The notes beneath the pieces were generated by a model. That model saw only the letters and a program-made list of their open reading frames with translations. It was not told the DNA's origin and searched no databases. From contig JAHXGL010000001.1 of assembly GCA_019923655.1 (NCBI GenBank), positions 3,653 through 67,652 of the forward strand: a stretch of DNA of 64,000 nucleotides, written 5' to 3'. Both the position numbers and the translations under genes were made by a program. The DNA comes from Candidatus Nealsonbacteria bacterium (GTDB lineage: Bacteria; Patescibacteriota; Minisyncoccia; Minisyncoccales; RBG-13-42-11). This document shows, piece by piece, positions 3,766-51,005 of this stretch; the first letter of the stretch is position 1; each line of letters opens with the position of its first letter.

Positions 3766-3792
3766 GATTGACAAGGTTTTTGTAAATGATAA

Positions 3793-3827
3793 GGTAGAAG
3801 GTAGAAGGTAGAAGGTAGAAGGTAGAG
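3793..3827. repeat. Heptamer microsatellite (GGTAGAA)x4 plus GGTAGAG
   Basis: Five exact-period 7-nt units read directly, 29 nt upstream of the GH130 gene ATG. Confidence 0.9.
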
Positions 3828-3855
3828 AGCGCCTAAGGGGTCAGACTTCACTAAT

Positions 3856-5853
3856 ATGCAGTTGGAGCGTTATAAAAACAATCCTATTTTAGAGCCGAGA
3901 AAAGAGCATGCCTGGGAAACAGGAGGTGTTTTTAATCCAAGCGTAATTTACGAACAAGGAAAAGTCTATATTGTTTATCGGGCTTTTTCTAAAGATCATA
4001 CTTCTAGTTTAGGTTTGGCAATTAGCAAGGACGGATTTAACATTGACGAGAGATTGCCAGAACCGATTTATAAGCCGCGAGAAAGTTTTGAAAAAAAAGC
4101 TAAACCAGGGGTTTGGTCGGGATGCGAAGACCCGAGAATTACTAAAATAGGCGACCGGTTTTATATGTGTTATACCGCGTTTGATGGAGTTCATCCAACC
4201 AGAGTCGCTCTAACATCAATAAAAGTAAAAGATTTTCTCGCTTTTCGCTGGAAATGGGAAAAACCGGTTTTAATTTCACCGCCAGGCATAGATGATAAAA
4301 ACGCTTGTATTCTGCCTCAAAAAATTAAAGGGAAATATTTTATTTTTCATCGATTTCATCCCTGTATTTGGATTGATTCAGTTAAAGATTTAAATTTCAA
4401 AAAAGACACTTGGATTAAAGGAAGTTGTTGGTTTATGCCGAGAACGGATAAATGGGATAGCCGAAAAATCGGCATTGGTCCGGTGCCGATAAAAACAAAA
4501 CAGGGCTGGCTTTTGATTTATCACGGCCTTTCTGAACAAGATAGAAAATACCGATTAGGCGCAATGCTATTAGATCTTAAAGACCCTTCCAGGGTTCTTT
4601 GCCGGCCAAATAATTTTATTTTGGAACCGCAGCAGGACTACGAAAAACAAGGAGTAGTTCCTAATGTTGTTTTTACTAATGGAGCAATAATAATTAAAGA
4701 CCAATTGTTTATTTATTACGGCGCCGCGGACAATGTTATCGGACTTGCCACAGTGAATCTAAATGAATTTTTGAAAGAATTAACGGAAAAAGCTGATTAT
4801 AAAATTGAACTTATAAGGCACAAACGAAACCCTATCTTAAAACCAAATATAAAAAATTGGTGGGAAGCTGATGCTGTTTTTAATCCTTGCGTTATCAAAG
4901 ATGAAAAAAACATTTTTCATATGGTTTATCGGGCTCATTCTTCTCAATTTTTTGATGAACATAAACCAGGATTTCATATTTCTTTTTTAGGATATGCCAA
5001 TAGTAAAAATGGAAGTACTTTTAAAAATCGTCGTCTATTTTTTAAGCCAGAGCATAAATGGGAATATTTTGGCTGTGAAGACCCAAGAATAACTAAATTT
5101 GGAAATCAGTACTTTATTTTTTATACCGCTGTTTCTCATTTTCCTTCTTCGCAAGAATATGTTAAAATAGCCTTAGCAACAACTAAGGACTTTAAAACAA
5201 TTACCAAGCATGGCATTGTAACGCCATTTAACGCAAAGTGCATGGTTCTTTTTCCGGAAAGAATCAACGGAAAAATGGTAGCAATTTTTGCTTTAGAGCC
5301 GGACTTGCGGCCATTAAAGACGGGTATTGCTTTTTTTAACGATATTCAAGAAATTTTATCTCAAGAATATTGGGATAAGTGGTGGATTGAAAAGGACCAA
5401 CAAGGTAAAAATATTTTATTTCCCCCAACGCCAGATTTAGAAATTGAAGTGGGCGCCCCTCCTATAAAAACAAAACAGGGCTGGTTGCTGATATTGGCTT
5501 ATATCACAGGAATTAGTCTTCCTGGTCCAGATGTTTTTGGCATCGGCGCCGCGCTTTTAGACCTAAAAGATCCAACTAAGATATTAGCTAAAAGCGATTA
5601 TCCTTTTTTAATTCCTAAAACGCAATACGAGATAAGATATATGCGGCCGAATGCTATTATCTTTCCTTCTGGCGCGGTTGTGAAGAACAAAGAATTATTA
5701 GTCTATTATGGGGCAGGCGACAAAATTTGCTGTTTAGCATTTTATAATTTAGAAAGATTAATAAAAATTTTATTAAAAAGCTCATCTCGCGCTTACTCTT
5801 CAAAATTCGCAGTCTTCCAAACCACGAAGGGGTTTGGAAACGAAGAATTTTGA
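3856..5853 (+). CDS. Tandem-domain glycoside hydrolase family 130-like protein (two GH130/DUF377 modules)
   Basis: NPILEPR..WE..GVFNPSVIYEQGKVYIVYRA and GCEDPRITKIGDRFYMCYTAFDG in the N-half; a second GCEDPRITKFGNQYFIFYTA module in the C-half. The last ~24 codons are encoded by a palindromic repeat. Confidence 0.8.
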   Translation: MQLERYKNNPILEPRKEHAWETGGVFNPSVIYEQGKVYIVYRAFSKDHTSSLGLAISKDGFNIDERLPEPIYKPRESFEKKAKPGVWSGCEDPRITKIGDRFYMCYTAFDGVHPTRVALTSIKVKDFLAFRWKWEKPVLISPPGIDDKNACILPQKIKGKYFIFHRFHPCIWIDSVKDLNFKKDTWIKGSCWFMPRTDKWDSRKIGIGPVPIKTKQGWLLIYHGLSEQDRKYRLGAMLLDLKDPSRVLCRPNNFILEPQQDYEKQGVVPNVVFTNGAIIIKDQLFIYYGAADNVIGLATVNLNEFLKELTEKADYKIELIRHKRNPILKPNIKNWWEADAVFNPCVIKDEKNIFHMVYRAHSSQFFDEHKPGFHISFLGYANSKNGSTFKNRRLFFKPEHKWEYFGCEDPRITKFGNQYFIFYTAVSHFPSSQEYVKIALATTKDFKTITKHGIVTPFNAKCMVLFPERINGKMVAIFALEPDLRPLKTGIAFFNDIQEILSQEYWDKWWIEKDQQGKNILFPPTPDLEIEVGAPPIKTKQGWLLILAYITGISLPGPDVFGIGAALLDLKDPTKILAKSDYPFLIPKTQYEIRYMRPNAIIFPSGAVVKNKELLVYYGAGDKICCLAFYNLERLIKILLKSSSRAYSSKFAVFQTTKGFGNEEF

Positions 5854-5856
5854 AAG
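5796..5856. repeat. Nested palindromic module: outer arms CTCTTCAAAATTC/GAATTTTGAAAG, inner arms TCTTCCAAACC/GGTTTGGAAAC
   Basis: Read directly; supplies the C-terminal tail and the TGA stop of the 3856..5853 ORF. Confidence 0.85.
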
Positions 5857-5864
5857 TTTAGTTT

Positions 5865-7631: not shown

Positions 7632-7673
7632 CTTGAATTCTTATATGTTTGTTTCAGAAAAACAGAGAAATGA

Positions 7674-7759
7674 GCCGAGGTGGTGAAATTTGGCTAGACA
7701 CGCAGTCTTCAGAAGGCTGTGAAGGAAACTTCATGCGGGTTCGAGTCCCGCCCTCGGCA
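7674..7759 (+). tRNA. tRNA-Leu(CAG), long variable arm, no encoded CCA
   Basis: Manual cloverleaf: acceptor GCCGAGG/CCTCGGC, anticodon loop TTCAGAA, T-loop TTCGAGT. Confidence 0.9.
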
Positions 7760-7762
7760 TAT

Positions 7763-7785
7763 CTGTCGGGGTCAAACCCCGACAG
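7763..7785. repeat. Palindrome CTGTCGGGGTCAAACCCCGACAG, the reverse-complement orientation of the 2005-2052 units
   Basis: Read directly, 4 nt after tRNA-Leu. Confidence 0.85.
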
Positions 7786-7813
7786 CCTAAAATAATATAA
7801 GAATTAGGTATTT

Positions 7814-9526: not shown

Positions 9527-9552
9527 CAACAAGGGGTCTGACCCCAACTATT

Positions 9553-10530: not shown

Positions 10531-10545
10531 TATCCTGGATCTATT

Positions 10546-11886
10546 ATGATTTCATTATTTGGGACAAGCGGAATAAGGGGCTCGGCTAAAGAATTTTTAA
10601 CTAATCAATTCTGTTTTGATATTGGCCGGGCTTTCGGCATATTCTTAAAAAACCATAAACAAAAAGGCAAAATAGCCGTAGGAATGGATCCTAGAAGATC
10701 CAGTCCAAGAATAAAGAGATCTTTTTCTTCAGGGCTCTTAAAAGAAGGCTACAAGGTTTCCGACCAAGGAATTGTTCCCGCTCCAGCTATGAATTATATT
10801 TTAATAGCTGATCCGGCTTTTGTTGGCAGTTGTATGATTACCGGAAGCCATATTAGATTAGATTTTAACGGGTTGAAATTTTTTGCCTTCAAAGAAGAAA
10901 TTTTAAAAAAACAGGAAAGAGAAATTGAAAATATTTACAAAAAAATCAAAGAGAGAATTCCGTTCAAACGAAAAAAAATAGAGTTCAAAAAAGAAAATAT
11001 TGCCATTAAATCTTACCGAGAAATGCTCTTAAACATAGCCAAACCGCCCTACCCTAAATGGAAGATAGTTATTGACGCTAGTAATGGCTGTCAGGTAAAA
11101 GCAATACCGACAATTCTTAAAAAATTAGGATTAAAAGTAAAAATTATAAATGGCAACCTGCAATCGGAAAAATTTATTCCCAGAGACACTGAAACCGAAG
11201 AAGCGGTAAAGGAGCTTCAAGAAAAAGTAAAAAAGGAGAAGGCGAATTTTGGAATAGCTTTTGATGGAGATGGAGACAGGGTAGTTTTTGTTGATAAAAA
11301 AGGAAGGTTTATTCCCGGAGATTATACTGGAACCCTAATCGCTAAATACAGCCCCACAGCAACCGTAGTTATCCCGACTAATGTTTCTCAAGTAGTAGAA
11401 ACCATAGGGAAGAAGATTGTTCGAACAAAAGTTGGCTCTCCTTATGTGGTTGAGGCAATGAAAAAATATAAAGCTTTTTTTGGCTTTGAAGCAAACGGTG
11501 GAGGAATTTCGGCTGAAATTATGATGAGTCGAGACGCTGGTTCTGTAACAATAAAAATTTTAAACTTATTAACCCAAAGCAAAAAAACTTTAGAAGAACT
11601 AATAAATACCCTTTCTAAATTTTTTCTTTATAGGGTCAAAATCAACTGTCCTCAAGAACTAAATCCAATTATTCTTAAAAAAGCAAAGAAGAAATTTAAA
11701 GGAATTAAAACCGAGGAAATCGACGGATTAAAAATCTGGCTTGATAAGTACGCTTGGATTCTTTTTCGGCCATCGGCTAACGCTCCGGAATTTCGGGTGT
11801 TTGCCGAAGCAAAAACCAAGGAAGAAGCTGAAAAATTAGGACAAAAAGGAATTAATTTTGTTAAATCATTGGTGAAACCTTGTTAG
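10546..11886 (+). CDS. Phosphohexomutase family protein (GlmM/ManB-like)
   Basis: GIRG N-terminus, TGSH active-site loop, FDGDGDR metal site, GFEANGG sugar loop. Confidence 0.8.
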   Translation: MISLFGTSGIRGSAKEFLTNQFCFDIGRAFGIFLKNHKQKGKIAVGMDPRRSSPRIKRSFSSGLLKEGYKVSDQGIVPAPAMNYILIADPAFVGSCMITGSHIRLDFNGLKFFAFKEEILKKQEREIENIYKKIKERIPFKRKKIEFKKENIAIKSYREMLLNIAKPPYPKWKIVIDASNGCQVKAIPTILKKLGLKVKIINGNLQSEKFIPRDTETEEAVKELQEKVKKEKANFGIAFDGDGDRVVFVDKKGRFIPGDYTGTLIAKYSPTATVVIPTNVSQVVETIGKKIVRTKVGSPYVVEAMKKYKAFFGFEANGGGISAEIMMSRDAGSVTIKILNLLTQSKKTLEELINTLSKFFLYRVKINCPQELNPIILKKAKKKFKGIKTEEIDGLKIWLDKYAWILFRPSANAPEFRVFAEAKTKEEAEKLGQKGINFVKSLVKPC

Positions 11887-11929
11887 AAATAAAACCTTTG
11901 AGAAAAATTTCTAACAAGGTAAAATAATA

Positions 11930-17478: not shown

Positions 17479-20400
17479 TTAGGAGTTAAGCGGGGTAAAG
17501 CCGGTCCCTGCGGGAATAAGCTTTCCAATAATCACATTTTCTTTAAGCCCGTGGAGTTTATCTTCTTTTCCTCTCAATGAAGCGTTGATTAAAACCCGAG
17601 AAGTTTCCTGAAAAGAAGCAGCGGAAAGAAAGCTCTCAGTGGTTAAAGCGACCTTAGAGACGCCAAGCAAAAGAACAATACCCTTGGCTGGCTTTTTTTT
17701 CTCTTTTTTGAGCTGAATGTTCTCTCTTAAAAATTCCGCTTTTTCTACAATTTCCCCAAGTTTAAAAATAGAATCTTCGGAAACAACAATCTTTAAACGA
17801 GAGAACATTTGGCGGCAGATTGTTTCTATGTGTTTGTCATGAAGTGAAACCCCTTGGGAAACATAAATTTTTTGGACTTCTTTGACAATATATTTTTGAG
17901 TTTGTTCAAGCCCAACCAACTTAAATAATTCTTTTAAGTCTAAATTACCCTCGCAGAGTTGCTGGCCTATTTCTATTTCTTGGTTAGGTTCTACTAAAAT
18001 TGCTATATTTTCCGGAATTTTATATTCTAAGATTGAAGACAAACTTTTAGTAGTCCTCCAATTCTTTTTTGTTTCTGACAGCAATTTTTTGCGTTTTTGT
18101 TTTATCTTTATTACCCTTTCAGGAGTTATTTCTATTATTTTTCCTCGGACTTGGGAAATCTTAGCTTTTCCTTTCGGTATTCTAGCTTCAAAAATCTCTT
18201 GAACTCGAGGCAGGCCAAGGGTAATATCACTTTCTCCGGCAACGCCCCCGGAATGGAAAGTTCTCATTGTTAGTTGGGTTCCTGGTTCGCCAATTGACTG
18301 AGCAGCCACAATTCCGGCTGCCTGTCCTATTTCTATTATTTTGTTTTTTCCCATATCCCAACCATAACATTTTTGACAAAGGCCTTTTACTACTTCACAA
18401 GTAAGCGGACTGGCGATTTTTATCTCTTTGATATTAAGACTGACTATTTTATCAGCTTTTTCCCAATCAATAATTTCTCCTTTTTTGCAAACCCCTTTTA
18501 TGTTTTCAAGGCTTATTCTTCCTGAAATTTTATGAATAAAATTCTGGCCAATTTCATCGGCATCTTTTCTTTGGACGATAATTCCTTGTTTGTTTCCGCA
18601 ATCTTTGGTAGTAATGATTATTTCATGGGCAACATCTATCAGTCTTCGGGTGAGATATCCAGCCGCTGCAGTTCGAAGCGCCGTGTCAGCCAGTCCTTTT
18701 CTTGTTCCATGAGTGGAAATAAAATATTCTAAAACATCAAAACCCTGCTTAAAAGAGTTTTTTATGGGCATTTCAATGATTTGACCGGTCGGATTAATAA
18801 CCAAACCTTTCATACCTGCCATTTGAACCGACGGACCCCAGGATCCTTTTGCTCCTGATTCAATGATTTGATAAATTGGCCCATTTTTTGGCAAGGTTTT
18901 CGGGATCAATTCTTCAATTTTGGACTTTGCTTTATTCCAAATTTTAATTACTTTAATAGTTTTTTCTTCTCTTGAGAGAAATCCTTTTTTTAAGTGTCCT
19001 TCAATTTCTTCTACTTCCTTTTCTGCTTCTTTTATAATTTTGGTTTTTTCTAAGGGAATAATTAAATCATCCATTCCCCAGGATATTCCGGACAGGCTGG
19101 CGTATTCAAATCCTAATAGTTTTATTTTATTTAAGAGATCTTGCGTTTTTTCTAAAGGGTATTTTTCAATAGTTTCCCTGCTTATTCTTTCTAAGTCTTT
19201 TATTTTTATTTCTGAATTCTGGAATGGGTAGTTTGAAGGCAGGGCTTGGTTGAAAATAATCCGACCAACCGAAGTTTCAATTAAATCCGTGCGTTTTAGC
19301 GGTTTAACATTTTGTCGGGACAGCCGCGTTTTAATTTTGGTTTTTAAGTCAATTTCGCCAAACTCATAAGCTAACATCGCTTCTTCGGGACTGGTAAAAA
19401 ATTTCTCTGGTTTTAGTGCTTCATCTTCAATTTTAGTTAAATAATAACAACCAAGAGCAATGTCTTGATGGAAAGTAATAACCGGAATACCTGTTGCCGG
19501 TTTTAGAAAATTAGCCGTGGAAAGCATAATTTCTCTAGCTTCTTTTTGGGCAATGGTTGAAAGGGGCAGGTGAACCGCCATTTGATCTCCGTCAAAATCA
19601 GCATTAAAAGCCTTACAGACCATGGGATGAATTTTAATGGCTTCTCCTTCAATTAAAACCGGATAGAAAGCTTGAATACCCAGCCGATGGAGGGTTGGCG
19701 CCCGATTTAATAAAACAACTTTATCTTTTGTTATTTCTTCTAAAATTGCCCAGACCTCATCTATGCCTTCTTCAATTAATTTTGAGGCGCTTCGAACATT
19801 ATAAGCTAGTTCTTTTTCCAAAATCTTTTTAATTATAAATGGCTTAAAAAGTTCCAGAGCCATTTTTTTAGGGAGACCGACTTGGTTAAGTTTTAATTCC
19901 GGACCAACGACAATTACCGACCGACCGGAATAATCAACTCGTTTGCCTAAAAGGTTCTGCCTGAATCGCCCCTGTTTCCCTTTAAGGATGTCAGCTAAAG
20001 ATTTTAGCATTCGCTTTCCGCCGGTCGTGGCAGTGGTCATTGTTCCTTTTCGGGCTTCGTTGTCAATGAGAGCGTCTACTGCTTCCTGGAGCATTCTTTT
20101 TTCATTCCTTAGAATAACTTCAGGCGCTTCTATTTCTAAAAGATATTTTAATCGATTGTTTCGATTAATTACTCGGCGATAAAGGTCGTTTAAATCCGAA
20201 GAAGCATACCGGCCGCCGTCCAGTTGCACCATTGGTCTTAAATCCGGAGGCGATACTGGTAAAAGTGTTAAAAATACCCATTCTGGTCTAATCTCAGCTT
20301 TTAACATTCCCTGGAAAAGTTTTATCCTTTCTAATATTTTTCTTTTAGCCAGGACTTGCCCCGTTAGATAATTTTTATCTAACGGGGCTTGCTCTGTTAG

Positions 20401-21228
20401 ATAATTTTTATCTAACAGGGATTGCCCCGTATAATCTTCGCGGGAGCTACGCGGGGATTGGGTTTTTTCTTTGTCATTTTTTAGTTTAGCTATTTCTTTT
20501 TCCAGGTCAATTTTGGTGCAAAGTTTTCTTAATGTTTCAGCTCCGGTTCCCACTTCAAAAACAGCCCCGTATTTCAGGGAAAGATCATGATATTCATTTT
20601 CAGAAAGAATTTTTAAAGGTTTTAGACTTAAAACTTCTTCTCGGGCTCTATTTTTAGCCTTTTTTAGCTTCTCTGACTCGGTTTTTGCTTTTGCTTTTTT
20701 ATTTTTGAGATTCTTTTGTTTTGACTCGTCTTGGTCTAAGGAACGCAGCGCCTTGTTTTTTCTTTTGTATTCTTTTTCAATCTCTTCCAGGATTTTTTTC
20801 TTAATGTCTAAGTTGACATCAGTAATAACATAGGCGGAGAAATAAATTATTTTTTCAAGCTGAGACACAGGAATATCCAGGATTGCGCCTATTGTTGAGG
20901 GAACGCCTCTTAAAAACCAAATATGGGAGCAGGCCATAGCTAGTTTAATGTGGCCCATTCTTTCGCGCCGCGAAAGAGCTTTTGTTACTTCTACGCCGCA
21001 CCGGTCACAAATTACTCCTTTGTAACGAATTCTTTTATATTTGCCGCAGTAGCACTCGTAATCTTTTGTTGGTCCGAAAATTTTCTCGCAAAACAGCCCA
21101 TCTTTTTCCGGCCTTTGTGTTCTATAATTAATAGTTTCAGGTTTTAAGACCTCTCCGTGAGACCATCTTGATATATCTTCCGGCGAAGCCAGTTTTATTC
21201 TTATTGATTTAATATCAGCAACTCGCAT
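17479..21228 (-). CDS. rpoC: DNA-directed RNA polymerase subunit beta-prime, with a K/E-rich lineage-specific insertion
   Basis: CxCGKY...CDRCGVEV zinc motif, NADFDGDQM catalytic loop, 1249 aa. Confidence 0.98.
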   Translation of the reverse strand: MRVADIKSIRIKLASPEDISRWSHGEVLKPETINYRTQRPEKDGLFCEKIFGPTKDYECYCGKYKRIRYKGVICDRCGVEVTKALSRRERMGHIKLAMACSHIWFLRGVPSTIGAILDIPVSQLEKIIYFSAYVITDVNLDIKKKILEEIEKEYKRKNKALRSLDQDESKQKNLKNKKAKAKTESEKLKKAKNRAREEVLSLKPLKILSENEYHDLSLKYGAVFEVGTGAETLRKLCTKIDLEKEIAKLKNDKEKTQSPRSSREDYTGQSLLDKNYLTEQAPLDKNYLTGQVLAKRKILERIKLFQGMLKAEIRPEWVFLTLLPVSPPDLRPMVQLDGGRYASSDLNDLYRRVINRNNRLKYLLEIEAPEVILRNEKRMLQEAVDALIDNEARKGTMTTATTGGKRMLKSLADILKGKQGRFRQNLLGKRVDYSGRSVIVVGPELKLNQVGLPKKMALELFKPFIIKKILEKELAYNVRSASKLIEEGIDEVWAILEEITKDKVVLLNRAPTLHRLGIQAFYPVLIEGEAIKIHPMVCKAFNADFDGDQMAVHLPLSTIAQKEAREIMLSTANFLKPATGIPVITFHQDIALGCYYLTKIEDEALKPEKFFTSPEEAMLAYEFGEIDLKTKIKTRLSRQNVKPLKRTDLIETSVGRIIFNQALPSNYPFQNSEIKIKDLERISRETIEKYPLEKTQDLLNKIKLLGFEYASLSGISWGMDDLIIPLEKTKIIKEAEKEVEEIEGHLKKGFLSREEKTIKVIKIWNKAKSKIEELIPKTLPKNGPIYQIIESGAKGSWGPSVQMAGMKGLVINPTGQIIEMPIKNSFKQGFDVLEYFISTHGTRKGLADTALRTAAAGYLTRRLIDVAHEIIITTKDCGNKQGIIVQRKDADEIGQNFIHKISGRISLENIKGVCKKGEIIDWEKADKIVSLNIKEIKIASPLTCEVVKGLCQKCYGWDMGKNKIIEIGQAAGIVAAQSIGEPGTQLTMRTFHSGGVAGESDITLGLPRVQEIFEARIPKGKAKISQVRGKIIEITPERVIKIKQKRKKLLSETKKNWRTTKSLSSILEYKIPENIAILVEPNQEIEIGQQLCEGNLDLKELFKLVGLEQTQKYIVKEVQKIYVSQGVSLHDKHIETICRQMFSRLKIVVSEDSIFKLGEIVEKAEFLRENIQLKKEKKKPAKGIVLLLGVSKVALTTESFLSAASFQETSRVLINASLRGKEDKLHGLKENVIIGKLIPAGTGFTPLNS
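20355..20420. repeat. Two tandem 33-nt palindromic units inside rpoC (stem CCCCGTTAGATAA/TTATCTAACGGGG)
   Basis: Read directly; translated in frame as LDKNYLTEQAP/LDKNYLTGQVL. Confidence 0.9.
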
Positions 21229-29967: not shown

Positions 29968-29996
29968 AAATCCGAAAGTCAAATCTTGGAGCGGGT
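29909..29996. repeat. Direct repeat copy 2 (88 bp), including the genuine 3' end of tRNA-Gly
   Basis: See copy 1. The core is at 29909-29957, with the hairpin at 29935-29951. Confidence 0.9.
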
Positions 29997-30061
29997 GAGC
30001 GGAGTCGAACCGCCTTCTCAATCTTGGCAAGATTGCATAATAACCGTTATACTACACCCGC
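29987..30061 (-). tRNA. tRNA-Gly(GCC), CCA encoded
   Basis: GCGGGTG acceptor, anticodon loop TTGCCAA, T-loop TTCGACT, ...CACCCGCTCCA. Confidence 0.85.
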
Positions 30062-30069
30062 ATTACTTA

Positions 30070-30141
30070 TGCCGCGGGCCGGTAACGCTCCGGCCACCCC
30101 TTCTTTTTCAGAGAAGTGCTCTACTTCTGAGCTACCGCGGC
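30070..30141 (-). tRNA. tRNA-Phe(GAA) with a non-canonical D-loop (AGAAGTA) and T-loop (AGCGTTA)
   Basis: All four stems are perfect: GCCGCGG/CCGCGGC, GCTC/GAGC, CTTCT/AGAAG, GCCGG/CCGGC. Anticodon loop CTGAAAA. Confidence 0.7.
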
Positions 30142-30145
30142 AGTG

Positions 30146-30219
30146 TGGGCGCGTCCTGACTCGAACAGGAGGCCTTCTCGGTGTAAACGAGACGCTCTAA
30201 CCAACTGAGCTACGCGCCC
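30146..30219 (-). tRNA. tRNA-Val(UAC)
   Basis: GGGCGCG acceptor, D-loop AGTTGGTTA, anticodon loop TTTACAC, T-loop TTCGAGT. Confidence 0.9.
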
Positions 30220-30222
30220 ATT

Positions 30223-30308
30223 TGGTGCGCGGGAGAGGACTTGAACCTCCACGTCCATAAGGACACTAGCACCTCAAGCTAGCCTGGCTACCATTACAGC
30301 ACCCGCGC
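30223..30308 (-). tRNA. tRNA-Leu(GAG), long variable arm, CCA encoded
   Basis: GCGCGGG acceptor, anticodon loop TTGAGGT, T-loop TTCAAGT, ...CCCGCGCACCA. Confidence 0.9.
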
Positions 30309-30716
30309 TCATTCTGTTATTTTAACAAACTCTTTTTTCTTTAATCTTGCTTTCTTCCCTTTAGCTGTTCTTAAATAATAAAGTTTTGCCCTTCTCACTT
30401 TTCCTCGTTTTATTATTTCTATTTTTTCTATAGTCGGTAAATGAATAGGAAAAATTCTTTCTACCCCAATTCCGGAAAGGACTTTCCTTGTTGTGATAGT
30501 TGCTCCTATTTCTTTTCCGTGTTTTATAGCGATTACCAATCCTTCAAAAATCTGAATTCTTTCCTTGATTTCTTTTTCTTTAGAGGACTTGGATTTGCTT
30601 TTCTTCGGCGTTTCTTTAATTTTTTGATAAATTCGAACAGTATCTCCTGGTCGGATATCAGGCAACTTCGTTCTTAATTGTGATTTTATGAAGTTTTCTA
30701 ATTTAGTGTTCATCAA
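30309..30716 (-). CDS. rplS: 50S ribosomal protein L19
   Basis: [13 protein letters not shown]...[14 protein letters not shown]...[17 protein letters not shown]; the TGA stop abuts the tRNA-Leu 5' end. Confidence 0.93.
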
Positions 30717-31330
30717 CTTAAGTTATTTAATATTTCTTCTAATTCTTCAGGCAGGATTGAATTAAACTCCTTTAATTCTTTGTCGGGCAGTTTTATCTTT
30801 AGGTAGCTGGCGTGCAAGAATTGTCTTTTTAGGCCTTGAGGAATTGGCTGATTTTTTAAGCCATACATTTTGTCTCCGGCAATTGGATGCGACAAATAAC
30901 TAAAATGAGCTCTGATTTGATGTTTTCTGCCTGTTTTCGGTTCAACCTCAATTAAAGTATATTTTTTGAATTTTTGCAAGACCCTGTATTTGGTTATTGC
31001 TTTTCTTTTTCCTTCAGCTTTGGGACCATGGTCCAGATAGACTTTTTGTTTTCTTCTGTCTTGGGGCGAGCGGCCAAGCAAAGTTTCAACTATCCCTTCT
31101 TTGTTTTTAAGGTGTCCCACAATTAAAGCTATATATTTTTTGACTACTTTTCTGTTTTTGAATTGTTCTTGTAAAAATTCTAAAGTTTTGTCATTCTTGG
31201 CGATTAAAAGTATTCCCGAAGTGTCTTTGTCTAATCTATGAGCTCTTTTTTCAAAATTATCGGAATTTATGCCTGCTGGCTTGGCAATCGCCAAAACATT
31301 TTCATCTTCATAGATTTTTTTCATTTTCAT
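30713..31330 (-). CDS. RluA-family pseudouridine synthase (catalytic domain only)
   Basis: [16 protein letters not shown] catalytic motif and [11 protein letters not shown]. The start is taken at MKMKKIY because the upstream part of the track ORF is tRNA sequence. Confidence 0.85.
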
Positions 31331-31331
31331 A

Positions 31332-31405
31332 TGGGCAATGCAGGGTTTGAACCTGCGACCTCTACCGTGTCGAGGTAGCGCTCTGACCAACTGAGCTAAT
31401 TGCCC
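31332..31405 (-). tRNA. tRNA-Val(GAC)
   Basis: GGGCAAT acceptor, anticodon loop TCGACAC, T-loop TTCAAAC. Confidence 0.9.
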
Positions 31406-31441
31406 CTGGTATGGGCGTGCCAGACAAAAGTATGGTTCTAG

Positions 31442-31516
31442 TGGGCATGCCAGGACTCGAACCTGGAAACCGCCAAGATATAAGCTTGGTGCTCTAACCA
31501 ATTGAGCTACATGCCC
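31442..31516 (-). tRNA. tRNA-Ile(UAU) (AUA-decoding), with a variable region one nt longer than standard
   Basis: GGGCATG acceptor, D-loop AATTGGTTA, anticodon loop CTTATAT, T-loop TTCGAGT. Confidence 0.75.
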
Positions 31517-34618: not shown

Positions 34619-35383
34619 ATGAATATTATTTGGCACGGACAATCTTGTTTTCAAATTACTATCCAGAAAGGGAAAAACAATTTGGTCAATATTGTTATTG
34701 ATCCTTTTGATGAAACAATTGGCTTGCGAGTTCCCAAGCTGGAGGCCGATATTTTATTAGTTTCTCATAGCCACGCAGACCACAACAATAGAAAAGCAGT
34801 GGTCTCCCCGGCAGGATCAGGGCAAGTTCCTTTTTTAGTTGACGGCCCGGGTGAATATGAAGTAAAAGGAGTTTTCATTCAAGGGATTGATTCATATCAT
34901 GATTCTTTACTTGGCAGAGAAAGGGGATTAAACACCATTTATATTATTGAAGCTGAAGAAATGAAGATTTGCCACCTTGGAGATTTAGGACAAAAAGAAT
35001 TGACCGATGAACAAATTGAGAAGATTAACGAGGTTGATATTTTAATGATTCCGATTGGCGGTCTCTTTACAATTTCAGCCAAAGAGGCAATGAAAATAAT
35101 CTCTCAAATTGAGCCCAGGATCGTTGTCCCGATGCATTATTGCCTTCCAAAGCTAAAAATAGAGGGATTAGAAGATTTAGATAAATTTTTTAAAGCAATC
35201 GGAATAAAAAAAATAGAACCTTTGTCAAAGCTTTCTATTAAGAAAAAAGATATTTCGTCGGAAGAAGCGAGGATAATAGTCTTCCAAATCCGAAAGGATT
35301 TGGAAACGAAGTCTTCCAAACTTCAAAGAAATTTGGAAACGAAGTCTTCCAAATCCGAAAAAATTTGGAAACGAAGTTTTTAG
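34619..35383 (+). CDS. MBL-fold metal-dependent hydrolase (UPF0173-like) with a repeat-encoded C-terminal tail
   Basis: VSHSHADHNN metal motif. The last ~31 codons (IRKDLETKSSKLQRNLETKSSKSEKIWKRSF) come from palindromic units. Confidence 0.75.
   Translation: MNIIWHGQSCFQITIQKGKNNLVNIVIDPFDETIGLRVPKLEADILLVSHSHADHNNRKAVVSPAGSGQVPFLVDGPGEYEVKGVFIQGIDSYHDSLLGRERGLNTIYIIEAEEMKICHLGDLGQKELTDEQIEKINEVDILMIPIGGLFTISAKEAMKIISQIEPRIVVPMHYCLPKLKIEGLEDLDKFFKAIGIKKIEPLSKLSIKKKDISSEEARIIVFQIRKDLETKSSKLQRNLETKSSKSEKIWKRSF
35280..35376. repeat. Three tandem 32-33-nt palindromic units (TCTTCCAAAyC-loop-rATTTGGAAACGAAG)
   Basis: Units at 35280-35311, 35312-35344 and 35345-35376, read directly. Confidence 0.9.
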
Positions 35384-39678: not shown

Positions 39679-39763
39679 AAAAACGCGCTTGACATATAAT
39701 ATATTTACTATAAGCTAAATGATAAATAGAAAGGTCGAAAAAAAACATAAAAAATATAATAAA

Positions 39764-39867
39764 GTTTCCAAATCCTTTGGCAGTCTTCCAAACCACGAAG
39801 AGGTTTGGAAACGCAGTCTTCCAAACCACGAAGGATTTGGAAACGAATTTGGAAACGAATTTGAAAG
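39764..39867. repeat. Array of TCTTCCAAACC...GGTTTGGAAACG palindromic units (2 full units plus partial ones)
   Basis: Full units at 39784-39816 and 39817-39847, read directly; the array ends 5 nt before the ATG at 39872. Confidence 0.9.
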
Positions 39868-39871
39868 ACTA

Positions 39872-40438
39872 ATGAAAAATATTTTGTCAAAAAGCATCTT
39901 GTCCTTGCTCTTAATCAGTTTTTTAGTTGTTCCAATAGTTGGGTTGGCAACAAGTGGGGCTACTCCCCCTGTTCCGAGAGTGGAGTGTCCAAAACTTTTA
40001 ACAAAGGCTCTCTGTGAGCAGACAGAAACTCCTGATATTAGATGTTTCTGGCATAGGGATGCAGCAGGCACAACAGCAGATCCTAGATGCAGGCATTTTC
40101 TAGCGCCACCACCAGAAGTAGATTTTTTAGCTGCGTTAGCCTGGATAGTTAATTTTGTTTTTTTCATTTTTATAACTGTAGCAGTAATTTTTATTATTGT
40201 GGCCGCTTTTCAGTTTCTTACGGCCGCTGGAGATGCTGAAGCAATTAAAAAGGCGCGAACAAGCATTCTTTACGCGGTAATTGCTATTGTAGTGGCAGTA
40301 ATGGCTCAAGGAACTGTAGACTTTATAAGAGATCGACTAGTAGCAGCACCACCAGTACCACCACCAGCACCAACAACACCACCAGCAACACTAGCACCAC
40401 CAGTAGAACCAGTAGAACCAGTAGAACCAGTAGTATAG
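39872..40438 (+). CDS. Secreted/membrane protein resembling CPR TrbC/VirB2-type (T4SS pilin-like) proteins
   Basis: Signal peptide MKNILSKSILSLLLISFLVVPIVG; a 4-Cys segment; two hydrophobic helices flanking FQFLTAAGDAEAIKKARTSILYA; a Pro-rich tail with (PVE)x3. Confidence 0.55.
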   Translation: MKNILSKSILSLLLISFLVVPIVGLATSGATPPVPRVECPKLLTKALCEQTETPDIRCFWHRDAAGTTADPRCRHFLAPPPEVDFLAALAWIVNFVFFIFITVAVIFIIVAAFQFLTAAGDAEAIKKARTSILYAVIAIVVAVMAQGTVDFIRDRLVAAPPVPPPAPTTPPATLAPPVEPVEPVEPVV

Positions 40439-40549: not shown

Positions 40550-40632
40550 GTCCAGGTGGCGGAACTGGTAGACGCGGTAGGTTTAGGACCTACTAGGATT
40601 ATCCTGTGGGAGTTCGAATCTCCCCCTGGGCA
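40550..40632 (+). tRNA. tRNA-Leu(UAG), long variable arm
   Basis: Acceptor GTCCAGG/CCTGGGC (one G-U pair), anticodon loop TTTAGGA, T-loop TTCGAAT. Confidence 0.88.
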
Positions 40633-45806: not shown

Positions 45807-46015
45807 AAGCAAAAAAACGAGAAGGAGAAAACAGCCAGACATTAGTTCGCCGCTTTGCTCAGAGAGTAAGGAAAAGCGGAATTTTGCGTTTGGCAAGAAA
45901 AATTAGATTTAGAGAAAGGCCTAAAAGCCGTCAAATGAAGAAAAAAGCGGCTTTAAGAAGGGAAGAAATGAAAAAAGAATACGAAAAAATGAAAAAGCTG
46001 GGTAAAGCCAAATAA
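45797..46015 (+). CDS. rpsU: 30S ribosomal protein S21
   Basis: ATG at 45797 within track ORF 45617..46015: ...LVRRFAQRVRKSGILRLARKIRFRERPKSRQMKKKAA. Confidence 0.85.
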   Translation: MGLEAKKREGENSQTLVRRFAQRVRKSGILRLARKIRFRERPKSRQMKKKAALRREEMKKEYEKMKKLGKAK

Positions 46016-46064
46016 TATTTTAACCGGGCAGATAATGACTGGGGTCTGTGCCCAATCATTCATT

Positions 46065-46856
46065 ATGAATAAAGAGAATAAAGAGAATAAAGAGAATAAA
46101 GAGAATAAAGAGTTTGATATAACTGTACCGGGAAACAAGATTGCGTTGGGACATTTGCACCCCTTAACTCAGACCAAAAAAAGAGTTGAAGAAATTTTTC
46201 AAACAATGGGTTTCTCGATAGTAGAGGGTCCGGATATGGAGACAGAGTGGTATAATTTCGATGCTTTAAACATACCCAAAAACCATCCGGCAAGAGACCT
46301 TTGGGATACTTTCTATCTTAAAAACGGATTATTGTTGCGAACTCATACCAGTCCCGTTCAAATTCGTTATCTGGAAAAAAATAATCTTCCTCTGCGCATA
46401 ATTGTTCCCGGAAACGTTTTCAGGCGTGAAGCAACCAATGCTTCTCACGAATTTCAGCTCTTTCAAATCGAAGGATTAATGGTTGATAAAAAAATCTCGG
46501 TGGCTAATTTAAAAGCCATTGTTGGCGAGTTTTTCCGTAGATTTTTTGAGAAAGACGTTAAATTTAGATTAAAACCCGATTATTTCCCATTTACCGAACC
46601 CTCTTTTGATATTGGCATAAGTTGCTTGGTTTGCAGGGAAAGGGGCTGTCCGGCCTGTAAAGGAAGCGGCTGGATGGAGGTGGCTGGCGCTGGCATGGTT
46701 CACCCCAATGTTTTTAAAAATTCAGGCTTAATTCCCAAAGACTGGCAGGGTTGGGCTTTTGGTTTCGGTCTAGAAAGGTTGACTATGCTTAAATACAAGA
46801 TAAATGACATCAGATTATTTCGTTCCGGAGATTTAAAGTTTCTTCAGCAATTCTAA
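46065..46856 (+). CDS. pheS: Phenylalanine--tRNA ligase alpha subunit (short form lacking the N-terminal coiled coil)
   Basis: HPLTQ, NHPARD, LLRTHTSPVQIR, FRRE..., FQIEGL, GFGLERL. The N-terminus carries (NKE)x5. Confidence 0.93.
   Translation: MNKENKENKENKENKEFDITVPGNKIALGHLHPLTQTKKRVEEIFQTMGFSIVEGPDMETEWYNFDALNIPKNHPARDLWDTFYLKNGLLLRTHTSPVQIRYLEKNNLPLRIIVPGNVFRREATNASHEFQLFQIEGLMVDKKISVANLKAIVGEFFRRFFEKDVKFRLKPDYFPFTEPSFDIGISCLVCRERGCPACKGSGWMEVAGAGMVHPNVFKNSGLIPKDWQGWAFGFGLERLTMLKYKINDIRLFRSGDLKFLQQF
46068..46112. repeat. 9-nt microsatellite (AATAAAGAG)x5 at codons 2-16 of pheS
   Basis: Read directly. Confidence 0.9.
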
Positions 46857-46863
46857 AACTAAT

Positions 46864-48966
46864 ATGGTTTTCTCCTACGGTTGGCTTCAATCTTTTTTTC
46901 AAAAAAAACTACCCAAACCAGAAAAACTGGCAGAAGTTTTGACGATGAGTTTTGCCGAAATAGAAAAGGTAAAAAAAGAAAGAGAAGATTTTGTTTTGGA
47001 TATAGATGTCAAACCCAGCCGGGCGTCGGATTGTCTTTCCCACCTGGGCATTGTTCGCGAAATCGCTGCTATTACAAAATTACAATACAAAGAGCCTCTT
47101 TCTAAATTTAAGGCAGTTAAAGAGCTGAAATCAAAAAATTTTGTGTCTGTTGACATCCGATGTCAACAAGCTTGTCCAAGATATACAATTAAAATAATTG
47201 TTGATGTAAAAGTTTGCCCATCTCCAAAATGGCTGAAACACAGATTAAAGGTTTGCGGATTAAAACCGATAAATAACATTGTTGATATCGCAAACTATGC
47301 CATGCTTGAAACAGGTCAACCGCTTCACGCTTTTGATTTTGACAAAATTAAAGGTAGAAAAATAATTGTTAGAAAAGCGAAAAAAGGAGAAGAAATTACT
47401 ACTTTTGATGAAAAGAGTTATTGCTTGGACCAAGATATTTTAATAATTGCCGATGCCAAAAAACCAATAGCTATTGCCGGAATAAAAGGAGGGAAAGAAA
47501 CAGGCATTGATAAAAATACAAAGACCGTTGTTTTGGAGTCAGCCAATTTTAATCAAGGGATTATTCGAAAAGGTTCCAGAAAATTAAACTTAAAAACCGA
47601 TGCTGCGACAAGATTTGAACAGGGAATTGACCCTAATTTAACGGAATTTGCAATCAATAGAGCTTGCTATTTAATCCAGAAAATTTCCAAAGGCAAAATA
47701 GCTCATGGATTGGCAGATATTTATCCCAAAAAAGCCCTGCCAAAAAGAATTAGATTGGACTTGGATTATGTTGAAAGATTATTAGGAATAAAAATACCTG
47801 AAAGAGAAATCAAAAGTATTTTAGAAAAACTAAGATTCAAGCTTAAAACTCAAAACTTAAAACTATTAGATGTAGAGATTCCTACGTTCAGATTAGATAT
47901 TTCTTTACAGGAAGATTTGATTGAAGAGATCGCCAGAATATATGGTTATGAGAAAATTAAGCCGGTTTTCCCGATAGTTTCGCTTATCCCGTTCAAAAGG
48001 AATCTGGAAATTTTTTGGGAAGGCAGGGCAAAAGATATTTTAGAACAAGCAAGATTTTCTGAAGTTTATAATTATTCTTTCATTAGTAAAGGGGATGCCA
48101 AAAATTTTGGCGGTAAGATAAATAAATTAATTGAAATAGAAAATCCATCAAGCATTGAACATAGATATTTGAGACCGAGCTTAATTCCGAATTTGTTAAA
48201 AAATATTCAAAAAAATCAGAAACTCTATTTTGAAACTTTCAAAACTCATAGAGTTTTGAAGAGTGAAACTTTCAAAACTCTACGAATTTTGAAGAGTAAA
48301 GAAATTAAAATTTTTGAATTAGGAAAAATTTTTCAAGCGCCTAAATTAGAAAAAAGAACTCTTTCGGGGGTAATGACAGGAGATGCGTTTTATCAAGTAA
48401 AGGGAGTAATAGATTTGCTTTTAAGTAAATTAGGCATTAGTAATATTCAGTATTGCGAGCATAGAACCGTAGAAAGGGGGTTAAAAAGCTGTTGGTGGCA
48501 GCCACCAAAATGCGCGGAGATTAAAATTAATGGAGAGCAAATAGGGTTTTTGGGCGAGGTTTCTTTCCGAGTTTTAAGCGACCTGAAAATAGAGCTGAAA
48601 ACAATAGTTTTTGATATTGATTTTGAAAAATTAGTTAGGTTTTGCTCTGAAGAAAAGACCTATCAGCCAATTTCTCGTTATCCGTCAGCAATAAGGGACA
48701 TAGCGGTTTTGGTTCCTAAAAGAATTAAAGTGAATGAGGTTTTGAATAAGATTAATGCGGTCAAAGGACAGAGAGGCCTGATTAAGGATGTGGATTTGTT
48801 TGATGTTTATGAAGGCAGGAACATTCCCAATAACAAGAAAAATTTTGCTTTCCATATTATTTATCAAGCGGAAAATAAAACTTTATCATCAAAAGAAATA
48901 GACGACGCACATCAAAAAATTGTTAAAGCATTGGAGGAACGCAAGGGATGGGAAGTCCGAAAGTAA
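46864..48966 (+). CDS. pheT: Phenylalanine--tRNA ligase beta subunit
   Basis: 700 aa with B3/4, B5 and anticodon-binding-like regions; follows pheS. Confidence 0.92.
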   Translation: MVFSYGWLQSFFQKKLPKPEKLAEVLTMSFAEIEKVKKEREDFVLDIDVKPSRASDCLSHLGIVREIAAITKLQYKEPLSKFKAVKELKSKNFVSVDIRCQQACPRYTIKIIVDVKVCPSPKWLKHRLKVCGLKPINNIVDIANYAMLETGQPLHAFDFDKIKGRKIIVRKAKKGEEITTFDEKSYCLDQDILIIADAKKPIAIAGIKGGKETGIDKNTKTVVLESANFNQGIIRKGSRKLNLKTDAATRFEQGIDPNLTEFAINRACYLIQKISKGKIAHGLADIYPKKALPKRIRLDLDYVERLLGIKIPEREIKSILEKLRFKLKTQNLKLLDVEIPTFRLDISLQEDLIEEIARIYGYEKIKPVFPIVSLIPFKRNLEIFWEGRAKDILEQARFSEVYNYSFISKGDAKNFGGKINKLIEIENPSSIEHRYLRPSLIPNLLKNIQKNQKLYFETFKTHRVLKSETFKTLRILKSKEIKIFELGKIFQAPKLEKRTLSGVMTGDAFYQVKGVIDLLLSKLGISNIQYCEHRTVERGLKSCWWQPPKCAEIKINGEQIGFLGEVSFRVLSDLKIELKTIVFDIDFEKLVRFCSEEKTYQPISRYPSAIRDIAVLVPKRIKVNEVLNKINAVKGQRGLIKDVDLFDVYEGRNIPNNKKNFAFHIIYQAENKTLSSKEIDDAHQKIVKALEERKGWEVRK
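48232..48297. repeat. Two tandem 33-nt palindromic units inside pheT (GAAACTTTCAAAACTC-N3-GAGTTTTGAAGAGT)
   Basis: Units at 48232-48264 and 48265-48297, read directly; translated as ETFKTHRVLKS/ETFKTLRILKS. Confidence 0.9.
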
Positions 48967-48968
48967 AA

Positions 48969-50909
48969 ATGAAAAAACAAACTAAAAATAAAAAAGAGGC
49001 AACCTATACAGCAAAAGATATTTATGTCTTGGAGGGCTTGGACCCGGTCAGAAAGAGGCCGGGAATGTATATTGGGACAACCGGGACCGACGGTCTGCAT
49101 CATTTAATTTATGAAACAACTGATAATGCGTTGGATGAATTTATGATGGGATATGGAGACCAGATGGAAATTACGCTTTTGCCAAATGGCCGGGTGAAAG
49201 TGACTGATAATGGCAGAGGCATTCCGGTTGATAGGCACGCCCAAACCAAGAAATCAGCTTTAGAAACAGTGATGACTACTTTGCATGCCGGGGCAAAATT
49301 CGGCGGCAAATCTTATCAGATTTCCGGCGGGCTGCACGGGGTAGGGGTTTCAGTAGTTTGCGCTTTGTCGCGCTGGATGAGGGTTGAAGTTTGCCGACAG
49401 GGCATAAAATACGCCCAGGAGTATGCTAAGGGCAAAGCAAAAACAAAAGTTAAAAAAATTGACGTTTGCAAACAATCAGGAACCACTGTTATTTTTGAAC
49501 CAGATCCGGAAATCTTTAAGGGGTTTGGGGAATCGCTTAAATTTGATTTCAGAAAGATCTTAAACCATCTTCGTCAGCAGTCCTATCTGATAAAAGGAAT
49601 AAAAACAATAATTAGAGACGAGCGGCTTAGGGAAAAGAAAAGCTATAGTTTTTATTTTAGCGGCGGACTGGCTTCTTACATAAAATATTTAACGCGTGGA
49701 GCTGTTTCTAGACAGAGAAATATTTTTTACGGCCAAGGCGAGAAGAATGGAATTTTAGTTGAAGCGGTTTTTCAGTACACTCAGGAATACGAGTGTTACG
49801 AAGAGAGTTTCGCCAATAATATTAATACCGGAGAAGGCGGTACTCACTTAACAGGATTCAGAACCGCCCTGACAAGAACATTCAATGATTACGCGAGAAA
49901 GAATGGTTTTCTTAAAGAGAACGGAGAGAATTTAACAGGTGAAGACATAAGAGAAGGTTTAACCAGCGTAGTTTCGGTTAAAATAAAAGAGCCCCAATTT
50001 GAAGGACAGACAAAAGCGAAATTAGGAAATCCTGAAGCAAGGCCGGCGGTAGAGCAGGTAGTGGCAGAAACTTTAATTGATTGGCTTGAAAGAAATCCCC
50101 AGGATGCCAGGGCAATTATTGAAAATTGCTTAATAGTGGCTAAAGCAAGAAAGGCGGCTAAAGCGGCAAAAGAAATTGTGCTAAGAAAAGGGGCGTTAGA
50201 TGGATTGGCTCTGCCTGGAAAATTAGCTGATTGCGCCTCAAAAAAGCCAGAGGAATCAGAACTTTATATTGTTGAAGGCGCCAGCGCCAGCGGCAGTTGT
50301 AAAATGGGAAGAGATCGGAGATTTCAAGCCATACTGCCTTTGCGGGGAAAAATTTTAAATGTTGAGAGGGCTCGTTTAGATAAAATTCTTAGTTCAAAAG
50401 AGATTAAGTCGCTGATTATTGCTCTCGGCACTGCTATTGCTGAAGATTTTAACATAAACAACGCAAGATATCACAGAATTATTTTAACCTTGGACGCAGA
50501 TATTGACGGCTCTCACATTAGAACCCTGCTGCTTACATTTTTTTACCGGTATTTTAAGCCGTTGATTGAAAAAGGCTATCTCTACATTGCCCAGCCGCCG
50601 CTTTATAAAATACAAGTTGGGAAACAAAGAGAATATGTCTATACCGAAGAACAAAAAATTAAACTTTTGAAAGGAATAAAAAAAGAAAAAGGAATTACTA
50701 TTCAAAGATATAAAGGTTTAGGAGAAATGAATCCGGAAGAATTATGGTCAACGACAATGAATCCGAAAAACAGGACTTTACTTCAGGTAACCATTGAAAA
50801 CGTTAAAGAGGCTGACCGAATTTTTGATATTTTAATGGGCGAAGAAGTTTTACCAAGGAAAAAATTTATTCAAACACACGCTAAACAGGTCAAAAATCTT
50901 GATATTTGA
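48969..50909 (+). CDS. gyrB: DNA gyrase subunit B
   Basis: LEGLDPVRKRPGMYIG, GGLHGVG, the EGASA(S)GS Toprim region, PLRGKILNVE. Confidence 0.96.
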   Translation: MKKQTKNKKEATYTAKDIYVLEGLDPVRKRPGMYIGTTGTDGLHHLIYETTDNALDEFMMGYGDQMEITLLPNGRVKVTDNGRGIPVDRHAQTKKSALETVMTTLHAGAKFGGKSYQISGGLHGVGVSVVCALSRWMRVEVCRQGIKYAQEYAKGKAKTKVKKIDVCKQSGTTVIFEPDPEIFKGFGESLKFDFRKILNHLRQQSYLIKGIKTIIRDERLREKKSYSFYFSGGLASYIKYLTRGAVSRQRNIFYGQGEKNGILVEAVFQYTQEYECYEESFANNINTGEGGTHLTGFRTALTRTFNDYARKNGFLKENGENLTGEDIREGLTSVVSVKIKEPQFEGQTKAKLGNPEARPAVEQVVAETLIDWLERNPQDARAIIENCLIVAKARKAAKAAKEIVLRKGALDGLALPGKLADCASKKPEESELYIVEGASASGSCKMGRDRRFQAILPLRGKILNVERARLDKILSSKEIKSLIIALGTAIAEDFNINNARYHRIILTLDADIDGSHIRTLLLTFFYRYFKPLIEKGYLYIAQPPLYKIQVGKQREYVYTEEQKIKLLKGIKKEKGITIQRYKGLGEMNPEELWSTTMNPKNRTLLQVTIENVKEADRIFDILMGEEVLPRKKFIQTHAKQVKNLDI

Positions 50910-50920
50910 TTATTAATGAT

Positions 50921-51005
50921 ATAGAGTGTAGAATAATATAGAAAAAGGAAGGTAGAGGGCAAAAAACTTTTAACTACATTCTACATTCTACATTCTACAT
51001 TCTAA
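50921..51005. repeat. Second copy of the inverted heptamer-array element (core at 50949-51004)
   Basis: aaggtagagggcaaaaaacttttaactacattctacattctacattctacattcta read directly; ends 5 nt before the secE ATG. Confidence 0.9.

Follow-up and report, generated by a model that had tools for sequence, protein, structure and literature searches.

Two units of a dispersed, self-nesting palindromic repeat family in frame in pheT of a Candidatus Nealsonbacteria genome: an apparently recent acquisition

The pheT gene of a Candidatus Nealsonbacteria bacterium, which encodes the beta subunit of phenylalanyl-tRNA synthetase (PheRS), contains two tandem 33-nt hairpin units that read in frame with the rest of the gene, and the question raised by this locus is where such a palindromic segment of an essential enzyme came from. 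We analyzed the gene within an AT-rich (36% G+C) stretch of 64,000 nt (contig JAHXGL010000001.1; hereafter, the window, in which positions are counted; L-numbers denote other metagenome contigs and P-numbers denote homologous proteins). The explanation that we consider likely is that the two units belong to a selfish, DNA-level family of palindromic repeats of 32–34 nt, which nests within itself, resembles the Rickettsia palindromic elements (RPEs) and the repetitive extragenic palindromic (REP) sequences, and was recently acquired by pheT and kept in frame.

The two units are arranged head to tail with a period of exactly 33 nt, differ in 4 of the 33 positions (29/33 identical) and are placed by Tandem Repeats Finder at 48231-48297; together, they encode 22 predicted residues, amino acids 457-478 of PheT. 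The stem of unit 1 consists of 10 perfect base pairs (TTCAAAACTC/GAGTTTTGAA, loop ATA) extended by three outer pairs across a 1-nt bulge, and that of unit 2 has a single mismatched position, C.A on the sense strand but a U.G pair on the antisense strand. The 66-nt segment folds at -22.5 kcal/mol as sense RNA (z = -5.6, with 0 of 200 shuffles as good) and at -30.0 kcal/mol as the antisense (z = -8.7); folded alone, unit 1 has a z-score of -3.3, and unit 2 folds weakly (z = -0.9). Only one sense frame is open across both units, and this is the frame used by pheT. The sequence, the open reading frame (ORF) and the stems all agree with the initial annotation of this locus, in which two in-frame 33-nt hairpin units were proposed at 48232-48297.

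Comparison with other PheT sequences indicates that the 66-nt segment is a recent, lineage-specific insertion rather than an ancestral part of the protein, as expected from the original observation that other PheT proteins have only a short linker at this place. We aligned, using MAFFT, the 120 best PheT homologs, from Candidatus Nealsonbacteria and neighboring groups of the candidate phyla radiation (CPR), in which the Pfam domains B3_4, B5, tRNA_synthFbeta and FDX-ACB are found; 115 of the 120 have zero residues between ...NxxxF and xEIKIFELG, where the insert sits. The solved PheRS beta chain 2rhq_B aligns to PheT with a gap of exactly 22 residues at the same place. In the AlphaFold2 model of PheT (60 orthologs; mean predicted local distance difference test score, pLDDT, 80.8), residues 459-478 score below 50 and are located between the helix 441-462 and the strand 482-491 of the tRNA_synthFbeta core; low confidence in such a helix-to-strand loop would fit a surface excursion.

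At the nucleotide level, the insert is absent from L001 (BBPG01001398.1, compared over its positions 1253-3009), whose identity to the window is 99.8% across the 1079 nt upstream of the insert and 99.6% across the 666 nt downstream, but which has 18 nt at this site against 87 nt in the window. The site reads AAT TTC AGG CAA TTT CAA AAA ATT in L001 and AAT CAG AAA CTC TAT TTT [66 nt] AAA GAA ATT in the window. Given that the empty allele comes from a strain with 99.8% identity, the process appears to be current, and, because the two units differ by 12% whereas the flanks of the two strains differ by about 0.2%, the pair seems to have been acquired already diverged, so that a fresh local duplication is unlikely. 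Both junctions are altered (Table 1), and the left one, we infer, is similar to a unit that has been truncated (AAACTCTA....TTTTGAA). Even without the insert, the site has an 8-bp quasi-palindrome of its own, TTCAAAAA-ATTAAAA-TTTTTGAA, whose core is that of the repeat arms.

Contig L001 is a scaffold of two parts with a run of N between them, at about 1135-1260, and only its right part comes from the near-identical strain; the left part, with pheS and the 5' end of pheT, is merely 73-89% identical to the window (99.8% in the right part), so L001 is probably a chimeric scaffold of two strains. A recombinant mosaic was considered and dropped because of the N run, and we draw no inference on recombination from L001.

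Unrelated inserts are found in the same loop in other Nealsonbacteria PheT proteins (P0040/P0068, P0061, P0119 and P0024) and in the next loop in P0048, P0050, P0057, P0058, P0060, P0078 and P0115. The DNA of the inserts in P0040 and P0061 is hairpin-forming and G+C-rich, and that of P0050 is an A-rich ATCAAA(A) microsatellite. These two PheT loops look like insertion hotspots.

The initial annotation related the pheT units to a family of TTCCAAA hairpins at 5796, 35280 and 39764. Units of this family are indeed present at all three loci (Table 1), with the correction that position 5796 is the left arm of an enclosing pheT-type unit, in the loop of which the TTCCAAA unit is lodged. Members of the family share an architecture of about 33 nt in which 2-3 outer pairs are followed, across a 1-nt bulge, by a stem of 8-11 bp that starts with TTC(C/A)AAA and closes on a loop of 3-7 nt; in the family orientation, all 13 pairs form in pheT unit 1, and 12 Watson-Crick pairs plus one U.G form in unit 2. 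A covariance model for which 24 distinct units were used, all from outside pheT, detected both pheT units on the minus strand at full length (1-34/34), with 29.8 bits for unit 1 and 26.3 bits for unit 2 (E-values, which are rough, of 3.7e-6 and 4.2e-5, respectively), compared to 14.6 bits for the best unrelated match. In contrast, a sequence-only hidden Markov model (HMM) of the six TTCCAAA units of the window, searched with nhmmer, gave a non-significant E = 1.4 for the pheT units, so primary-sequence similarity alone was rejected as proof of kinship, and the relationship rests on structure-aware scoring together with exact matches.

These exact matches involve composite elements. When the inner 32-nt TTCCAAA unit (2795-2826) is removed from L145:2780-2842, what remains is identical to the minus strand of pheT unit 2 along 31 nt (CTCTTCAAAATTCGTAGAGTTTTGAAAGTTT); the same composite occupies 5795-5859 of the window, at a non-homologous locus, where its computed fold is a hairpin within a hairpin (-25.5 kcal/mol, z = -5.6) and where 5793-5809 is a 17-nt exact match to the minus strand of pheT unit 2, around the nested TTCCAAA unit. 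In addition, there is a partial pheT-type arm beside an array at L142 ~6320, and a hybrid unit, L145:4000-4035 (AGTCTTCAAAATCCC..GGGATTTTGAAACTTTAA), combines canonical family flanks with a TTCAAAA/TTTTGAA stem. On this evidence, the pheT units belong to the dispersed repeat family, as originally proposed. The paired A/T versus C/G change that was singled out as distinguishing them is real, keeps the stem and recurs independently in the hybrid unit, but it is not the sole difference: a second flip, from G-C to C-G, is found in the outer stem. With more than one pair changed and with TTCCAAA units nested in its members, the pheT type is a distinct 'TTCAAAA' subfamily.

Table 1. Positions in the window of the pheT hairpin units, their junctions and host gene, related repeats and adjacent genes
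Feature	Coordinates	Strand or orientation	Basis or comment
pheT-type hairpin unit 1, GAAACTTTCAAAACTCATAGAGTTTTGAAGAGT	48232..48264	family orientation -, antisense to pheT	+ strand codes ETFKTHRVLKS
pheT-type hairpin unit 2, GAAACTTTCAAAACTCTACGAATTTTGAAGAGT	48265..48297	family orientation -	+ strand codes ETFKTLRILKS
Left junction, altered: CAGAAACTCTATTTT; empty allele TTCAGGCAATTT	48217..48231	+	window/L001 alignment
Right junction, altered: AAAGAA; empty allele CAAAAA	48298..48303	+	window/L001 alignment
pheT, phenylalanyl-tRNA synthetase beta subunit, 700 aa (host gene)	46864..48966	+	ORF; Pfam domains in homologs; PDB matches
Composite: pheT-type arms ACTCTTCAAAATTCG (5795-5809) and GAATTTTGAAAGTTT (5845-5859), TTCCAAA unit 5811-5843 in the loop	5795..5859	+	
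Three TTCCAAA-type units (32, 33 and 32 nt), 3' end of ORF 34619..35383	35278..35374	+	
TTCCAAA-type array: partial inverted arm, 2 full units, extra 12-nt right arms	39764..39869	+	
pheS	46035..46856	+	ORF
gyrB	48948..50909	+	ORF

The stems of the family are kept by paired changes. When 26 distinct units were tested against the structure (((.((((((((((.......)))))))))))))..., 90.8% of the cells paired, and changes on both sides were found in 5 of the 13 stem pairs (20 cells). The covariation score of 0.187 was reached by none of 500 shuffles and exceeds all slid controls (<=0.068), so that the covariation suggested in the initial annotation holds up on the larger sample. At pair 8-28, 22 units have C-G and 3 have A-U (both pheT units and L145:4000), and pair 2-33 is G-C in 22 units, C-G in both pheT units and U-A in an 'ATTG' subfamily; further variants, CCGAAT/ATTCGG and CCAAGTC/GACTTGG, come from nested copies outside the 26-unit alignment. 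Paired changes may stem from selection on the hairpin at the DNA level or at the RNA level, or from one arm serving as the template for the other; by themselves, they neither prove selection on an RNA structure nor tell at which level the family functions.

A metagenome scan with the pattern AGTCTTCCAAAN{8,13}TTTGGAAACG yielded 12 loci, 9 of these from the assemblies BBPD, BBPE and BBPF, which come from the same study as L001. One locus, L139, is the homolog of window 1-11929, and the remaining ones are new regions of similar G+C; the scan loci contain about 30 further units (~30 distinct units in 155 kb). A degenerate pattern, TTTCMAAAN{7,14}TTTKGAAGAST, was uninformative on genome contigs, with at least 119 single, non-palindromic chance matches in unrelated taxa. 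Scans of viral contigs with the patterns of both subfamilies matched a conserved phage coding sequence and AT-rich coincidences alone; by these scans, the family is not viral.

The units form head-to-tail arrays with periods of 32-34 nt, and the family nests within itself: units are found in the loops or arms of other units, and surplus left or right arms accumulate, as at L143:3018-3118 and L146:8383-8452, while an outer CCGAAT/ATTCGG unit encloses another unit at L138:11804-11861. Because the units abut or nest, with zero spacers, these arrays do not qualify as clustered regularly interspaced short palindromic repeats (CRISPR). The tetranucleotide GTAG, which heads the REP sequences cleaved by RAYT transposases, occurs in many of the unit loops (pheT unit 2 minus strand, TTCGTAGAG; L143/L144, CCGTAGGA and CCGTAGAA); this could be a coincidence.

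The pheT units are not the only ones that read in frame, at least in predicted coding sequences. In the C-terminal linker of FtsZ (L138 10624..12144), units account for about 380 nt ahead of the conserved C-terminal peptide; in release factor RF1 (prfA, L142 8117..9220), in-frame units lie between the PCRF N-terminal helices and the IEIRAGTGG motif, and the protein has about 17-20 extra residues compared to 4v4r_AY; and further units are found within a 472-aa membrane ORF (L138 1450..2868). The TTCCAAA consensus is stop-free in all six frames. Codon-by-codon comparison ruled out that pheT shares the reading frame of the unit with ftsZ and prfA; relative to the TTCCAAA unit, the frame read in pheT is the 'RFQTP' one.

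In the window, two ORFs end in repeat-encoded tails, namely, 3856..5853 (GH130) and 34619..35383 (metallo-beta-lactamase fold). The ORF 39719..40438, which NCBI lists as a 'pilin' (P0121), is called from 39719 through the array at 39764-39869, and there is an alternative, signal-peptide-like start (MKNILSKSILSLLL) at about 39872. The ORFs that run through arrays are likely to be either annotation artefacts or genuine repeat-encoded tails; in practice, gene callers extend ORFs through hairpin arrays, as with P0121. A peptide search with concatenated unit translations matched P0121 alone and detected no wider spread at the protein level. Outside the protein-coding genes, family units at L142 2315-2781 bracket the 3' end of 16S rRNA (…AAGTCGTAACAAGG…GGATCATCAC) and the downstream spacer; one unit there has an extended 18-bp stem (AGTCTTCCAAACCGAGCACTCA..TGAGTGCTCGGTTTGGAAACTTT), and a second left arm lies about 420 nt away.

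How, then, would the repeats have reached pheT and persisted there? Under the selfish-repeat reading, the family populates intergenic spacers, gene ends and in-frame, tolerant loops or linkers of essential proteins, and copies within essential genes would survive only if they keep the frame, lack stop codons and are tolerated by the protein structure. In pheT, two already-diverged 'TTCAAAA' units would have been acquired, in antisense, within the class-II-like core of the beta subunit, at a loop that leads from a helix to a strand and at a landing site that bears the native quasi-palindrome; the insert would persist because it amounts to 2 x 11 codons and lies in the only sense frame that is stop-free for both units, and the protein would gain a 22-residue surface excursion. 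Spread at the DNA level could occur by insertion targeted to hairpin loops, or else by template switching or gene conversion at arm-like sequence: the preference for loops, the arm-like quasi-palindrome and the rewritten junctions without target-site duplication fit either hairpin-targeted insertion or template switching/gene conversion at microhomology. The palindromy, in turn, might be kept because spread needs the hairpin, or through arm-to-arm copying, rather than for an RNA function in pheT.

Several observations weigh against this scenario. The pheT site is not a clean cut-and-paste product: about 15 nt of the left junction and 6 nt of the right junction are rewritten, two single-nucleotide polymorphisms relative to the empty allele lie within 25 nt upstream of the insert, and no target-site duplication is visible in the alignment of the window with L001, so the event could be a conversion patch from another allele instead of a de novo insertion. 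The census is small, and the family is seen only in the BBPD-BBPG assemblies, from one study, and in the present genome. No mobilizing enzyme, such as a RAYT (Y1 HUH transposase), was found; a tblastn search of about 175 kb with IS200 and IS608 TnpA sequences, which is a weak test, gave nothing below E = 0.6. The 22 residues of the insert are predicted from the DNA alone, and an RNA-level role is possible, in which case the paired changes would look alike.

We nevertheless find each of the alternatives to be less well supported than a selfish repeat. The one that survives best, although it is unlikely, is that the units are functional RNA hairpins (mRNA stabilizers, processing sites, attenuators or antisense RNAs), with selection on the RNA keeping the stem and the pheT copy modulating pheST-gyrB. 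Strong covariation, stable folds and mismatched intermediates that are U.G on one strand are all compatible with this possibility, but nesting, partial arms and (L)n(R)m patterns are what dynamics at the DNA level typically produce, and copies are located within unrelated protein-coding genes. In the window, the arrays at 5795, 35278 and 39764 lie between co-directional plus-strand genes, all in the same orientation; across the family, however, the orientation of units relative to the flanking genes is mixed, being reversed at L138, L141, L146, L149 and pheT. Furthermore, the sequence after the units is ACGAAGTC or ACTTTA, not the T run that would give a U-tract; at the gathering score, Rfam left the units unmatched, with only eight tRNAs matched in the window; and a terminator scan of 46000-51000 did not report the pheT units, which show no intrinsic-terminator features.

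Somewhat less probable still is that an 11-aa amphipathic repeat has been selected as an adaptive module for PheRS function, such as binding of tRNA or of a partner, the palindromy being incidental. The insert is in frame, K/R-rich and partly helical in the AlphaFold2 model, but the confidence of the model is low precisely there, and the same nucleotide unit occurs elsewhere in non-coding positions and in other frames. The presence of inserts in this loop in other Nealsonbacteria PheT proteins could be taken in favor of such a module, were these inserts not unrelated in sequence and the pheT insert not missing in the 99.8%-identical strain.

Very improbable, and largely refuted already, is a purely local origin of the segment, through slippage or duplication of pheT's own sequence at the quasi-palindrome TTCAAAAA..TTTTTGAA, the likeness to the family arising by chance: the 8-bp native stem with the same core in the empty site and the non-significant HMM similarity to the six window units are outweighed by the 31-nt and 17-nt exact matches at non-homologous loci (the 17-mer alone is expected at most ~1e-3 times in 64 kb, as estimated from base composition), by the gap in covariance-model scores and by the 12% difference between the units against 0.2% in the flanks. 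Mis-joining of repeat reads into pheT during assembly is similarly improbable: even though the units are repeated in the genome and the contig that lacks the insert, L001, is a scaffold interrupted by N, the insert measures exactly 2 x 33 nt, keeps the reading frame and has contiguous pheT on both sides, with junction changes that leave the frame open, and a wrong join would not bring the downstream gene back into frame.

A selfish repeat family of this kind has counterparts in other bacteria. RPEs comprise Rickettsia-specific families of in-frame palindromes, about 100-150 bp long, in housekeeping genes (Ogata et al. 2000, as summarized in PMC10969869). As far as that summary goes, the likeness extends to dispersed palindromes in a small, reduced genome, located in frame in unrelated housekeeping genes at tolerant positions, along with non-coding copies, and a transposase is known for neither family; the present units differ in being 32-34 nt in length, tandem or nested, loop-inserting and hosted by a CPR bacterium. 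Length and host thus set the RPEs, as outlined there, apart, and a sequence relationship is not expected.

The REP, BIME and REPIN elements of Proteobacteria are likewise imperfect palindromes of 20-40 nt, in many copies, with strain-variable arrays and paired stem changes. Enterobacterial palindromic units are insertion targets themselves (IS1397/ISKpn1). However, REPs are extragenic by definition, linked to RAYT and headed by a conserved GTAG, whereas copies of the present family are found within genes, in frame, and its arrays are head-to-tail or nested rather than inverted doublets. MITEs, the miniature transposable elements with inverted repeats (ERIC, BOX, Correia/NEMIS and RUP), are also small, non-autonomous inverted-repeat elements that can sit inside ORFs and make in-frame fusions, but in these a non-palindromic core is framed by terminal inverted repeats, and there are target-site duplications and, in most cases, a parent insertion sequence; in contrast, the present unit is a single hairpin, no parent element is known for the family, and the pheT junctions lack a target-site duplication, with 18 nt replaced by 87 nt.

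Full-text literature searches returned no description of such elements in CPR bacteria (Patescibacteria). The proteins and rRNAs of these bacteria contain unexplained lineage-specific insertions, and Brown et al. reportedly described those in CPR rRNAs in 2015. The pheT insert resembles these in being an extra segment in a conserved essential gene and differs in that a hairpin repeat family is not known to have been named as the source of the CPR insertions, whereas for this one, in the gene for an essential aminoacyl-tRNA synthetase, the nucleotide sequence leads back to a dispersed hairpin repeat. These findings suggest that tiny CPR genomes routinely gain new peptide segments from short, palindromic selfish DNA (pheT, ftsZ, prfA and rpoC). 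If so, this would be an independent parallel to RPEs, with units three to five times smaller and with nesting that hints at hairpin-targeted spread.

More speculatively, and with distinctly less confidence than in the selfish nature of the repeats, we raise the possibility that Nealsonbacteria carry ultra-short (32-34 nt), hitherto undescribed, self-nesting palindromic elements that home to hairpin loops and arm-like sequences, including quasi-palindromes in essential genes. Such elements might have evolved to be stop-free (in six frames, in the main subfamily) so that intragenic copies survive, and might constitute a general, ongoing source of CPR protein insertions (in pheT, ftsZ and prfA and, with another hairpin family, rpoC), mobilized by an as yet unknown enzyme or replication/repair mechanism.

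Other repeats are found in the same window. The minus-strand gene rpoC (17479..21228) contains, at 20350-20430, an unrelated 33-nt hairpin tandem (CCCCGTTAGATAATTTTTATCTAACGGGG...), with a paired change from CG to TA between the units; it reads in frame (...LLDKNYLTEQAPLDKNYLTGQ...) within a segment of about 40 aa that is unaligned to solved beta' chains (7l7b_D) and makes rpoC the second essential gene of these 64 kb to have a hairpin-repeat insertion in frame. A third palindrome, CTGTCGGGGTTTGACCCCGACAG, forms a tandem array with a 25-nt period at 2005-2076; compared to this array, L139 (99% identical) is short of exactly one 24-nt unit, which indicates that hairpin arrays, in this case those of another family, vary in copy number between strains. 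The 5' end of pheS (46067-46112) includes five exact copies of the 9-nt GAATAAAGA, coding NKENKENKENKENKE in an N-terminal extension, and the pilin-like gene contains 9-nt and 12-nt tandem repeats at 40344-40433 (CAGCACCAC; ACCAGTAGA x3.9). Seven tRNA genes are clustered on the minus strand at 29990-31516, and single tRNA genes are located at 7674-7759 and 40550-40632.

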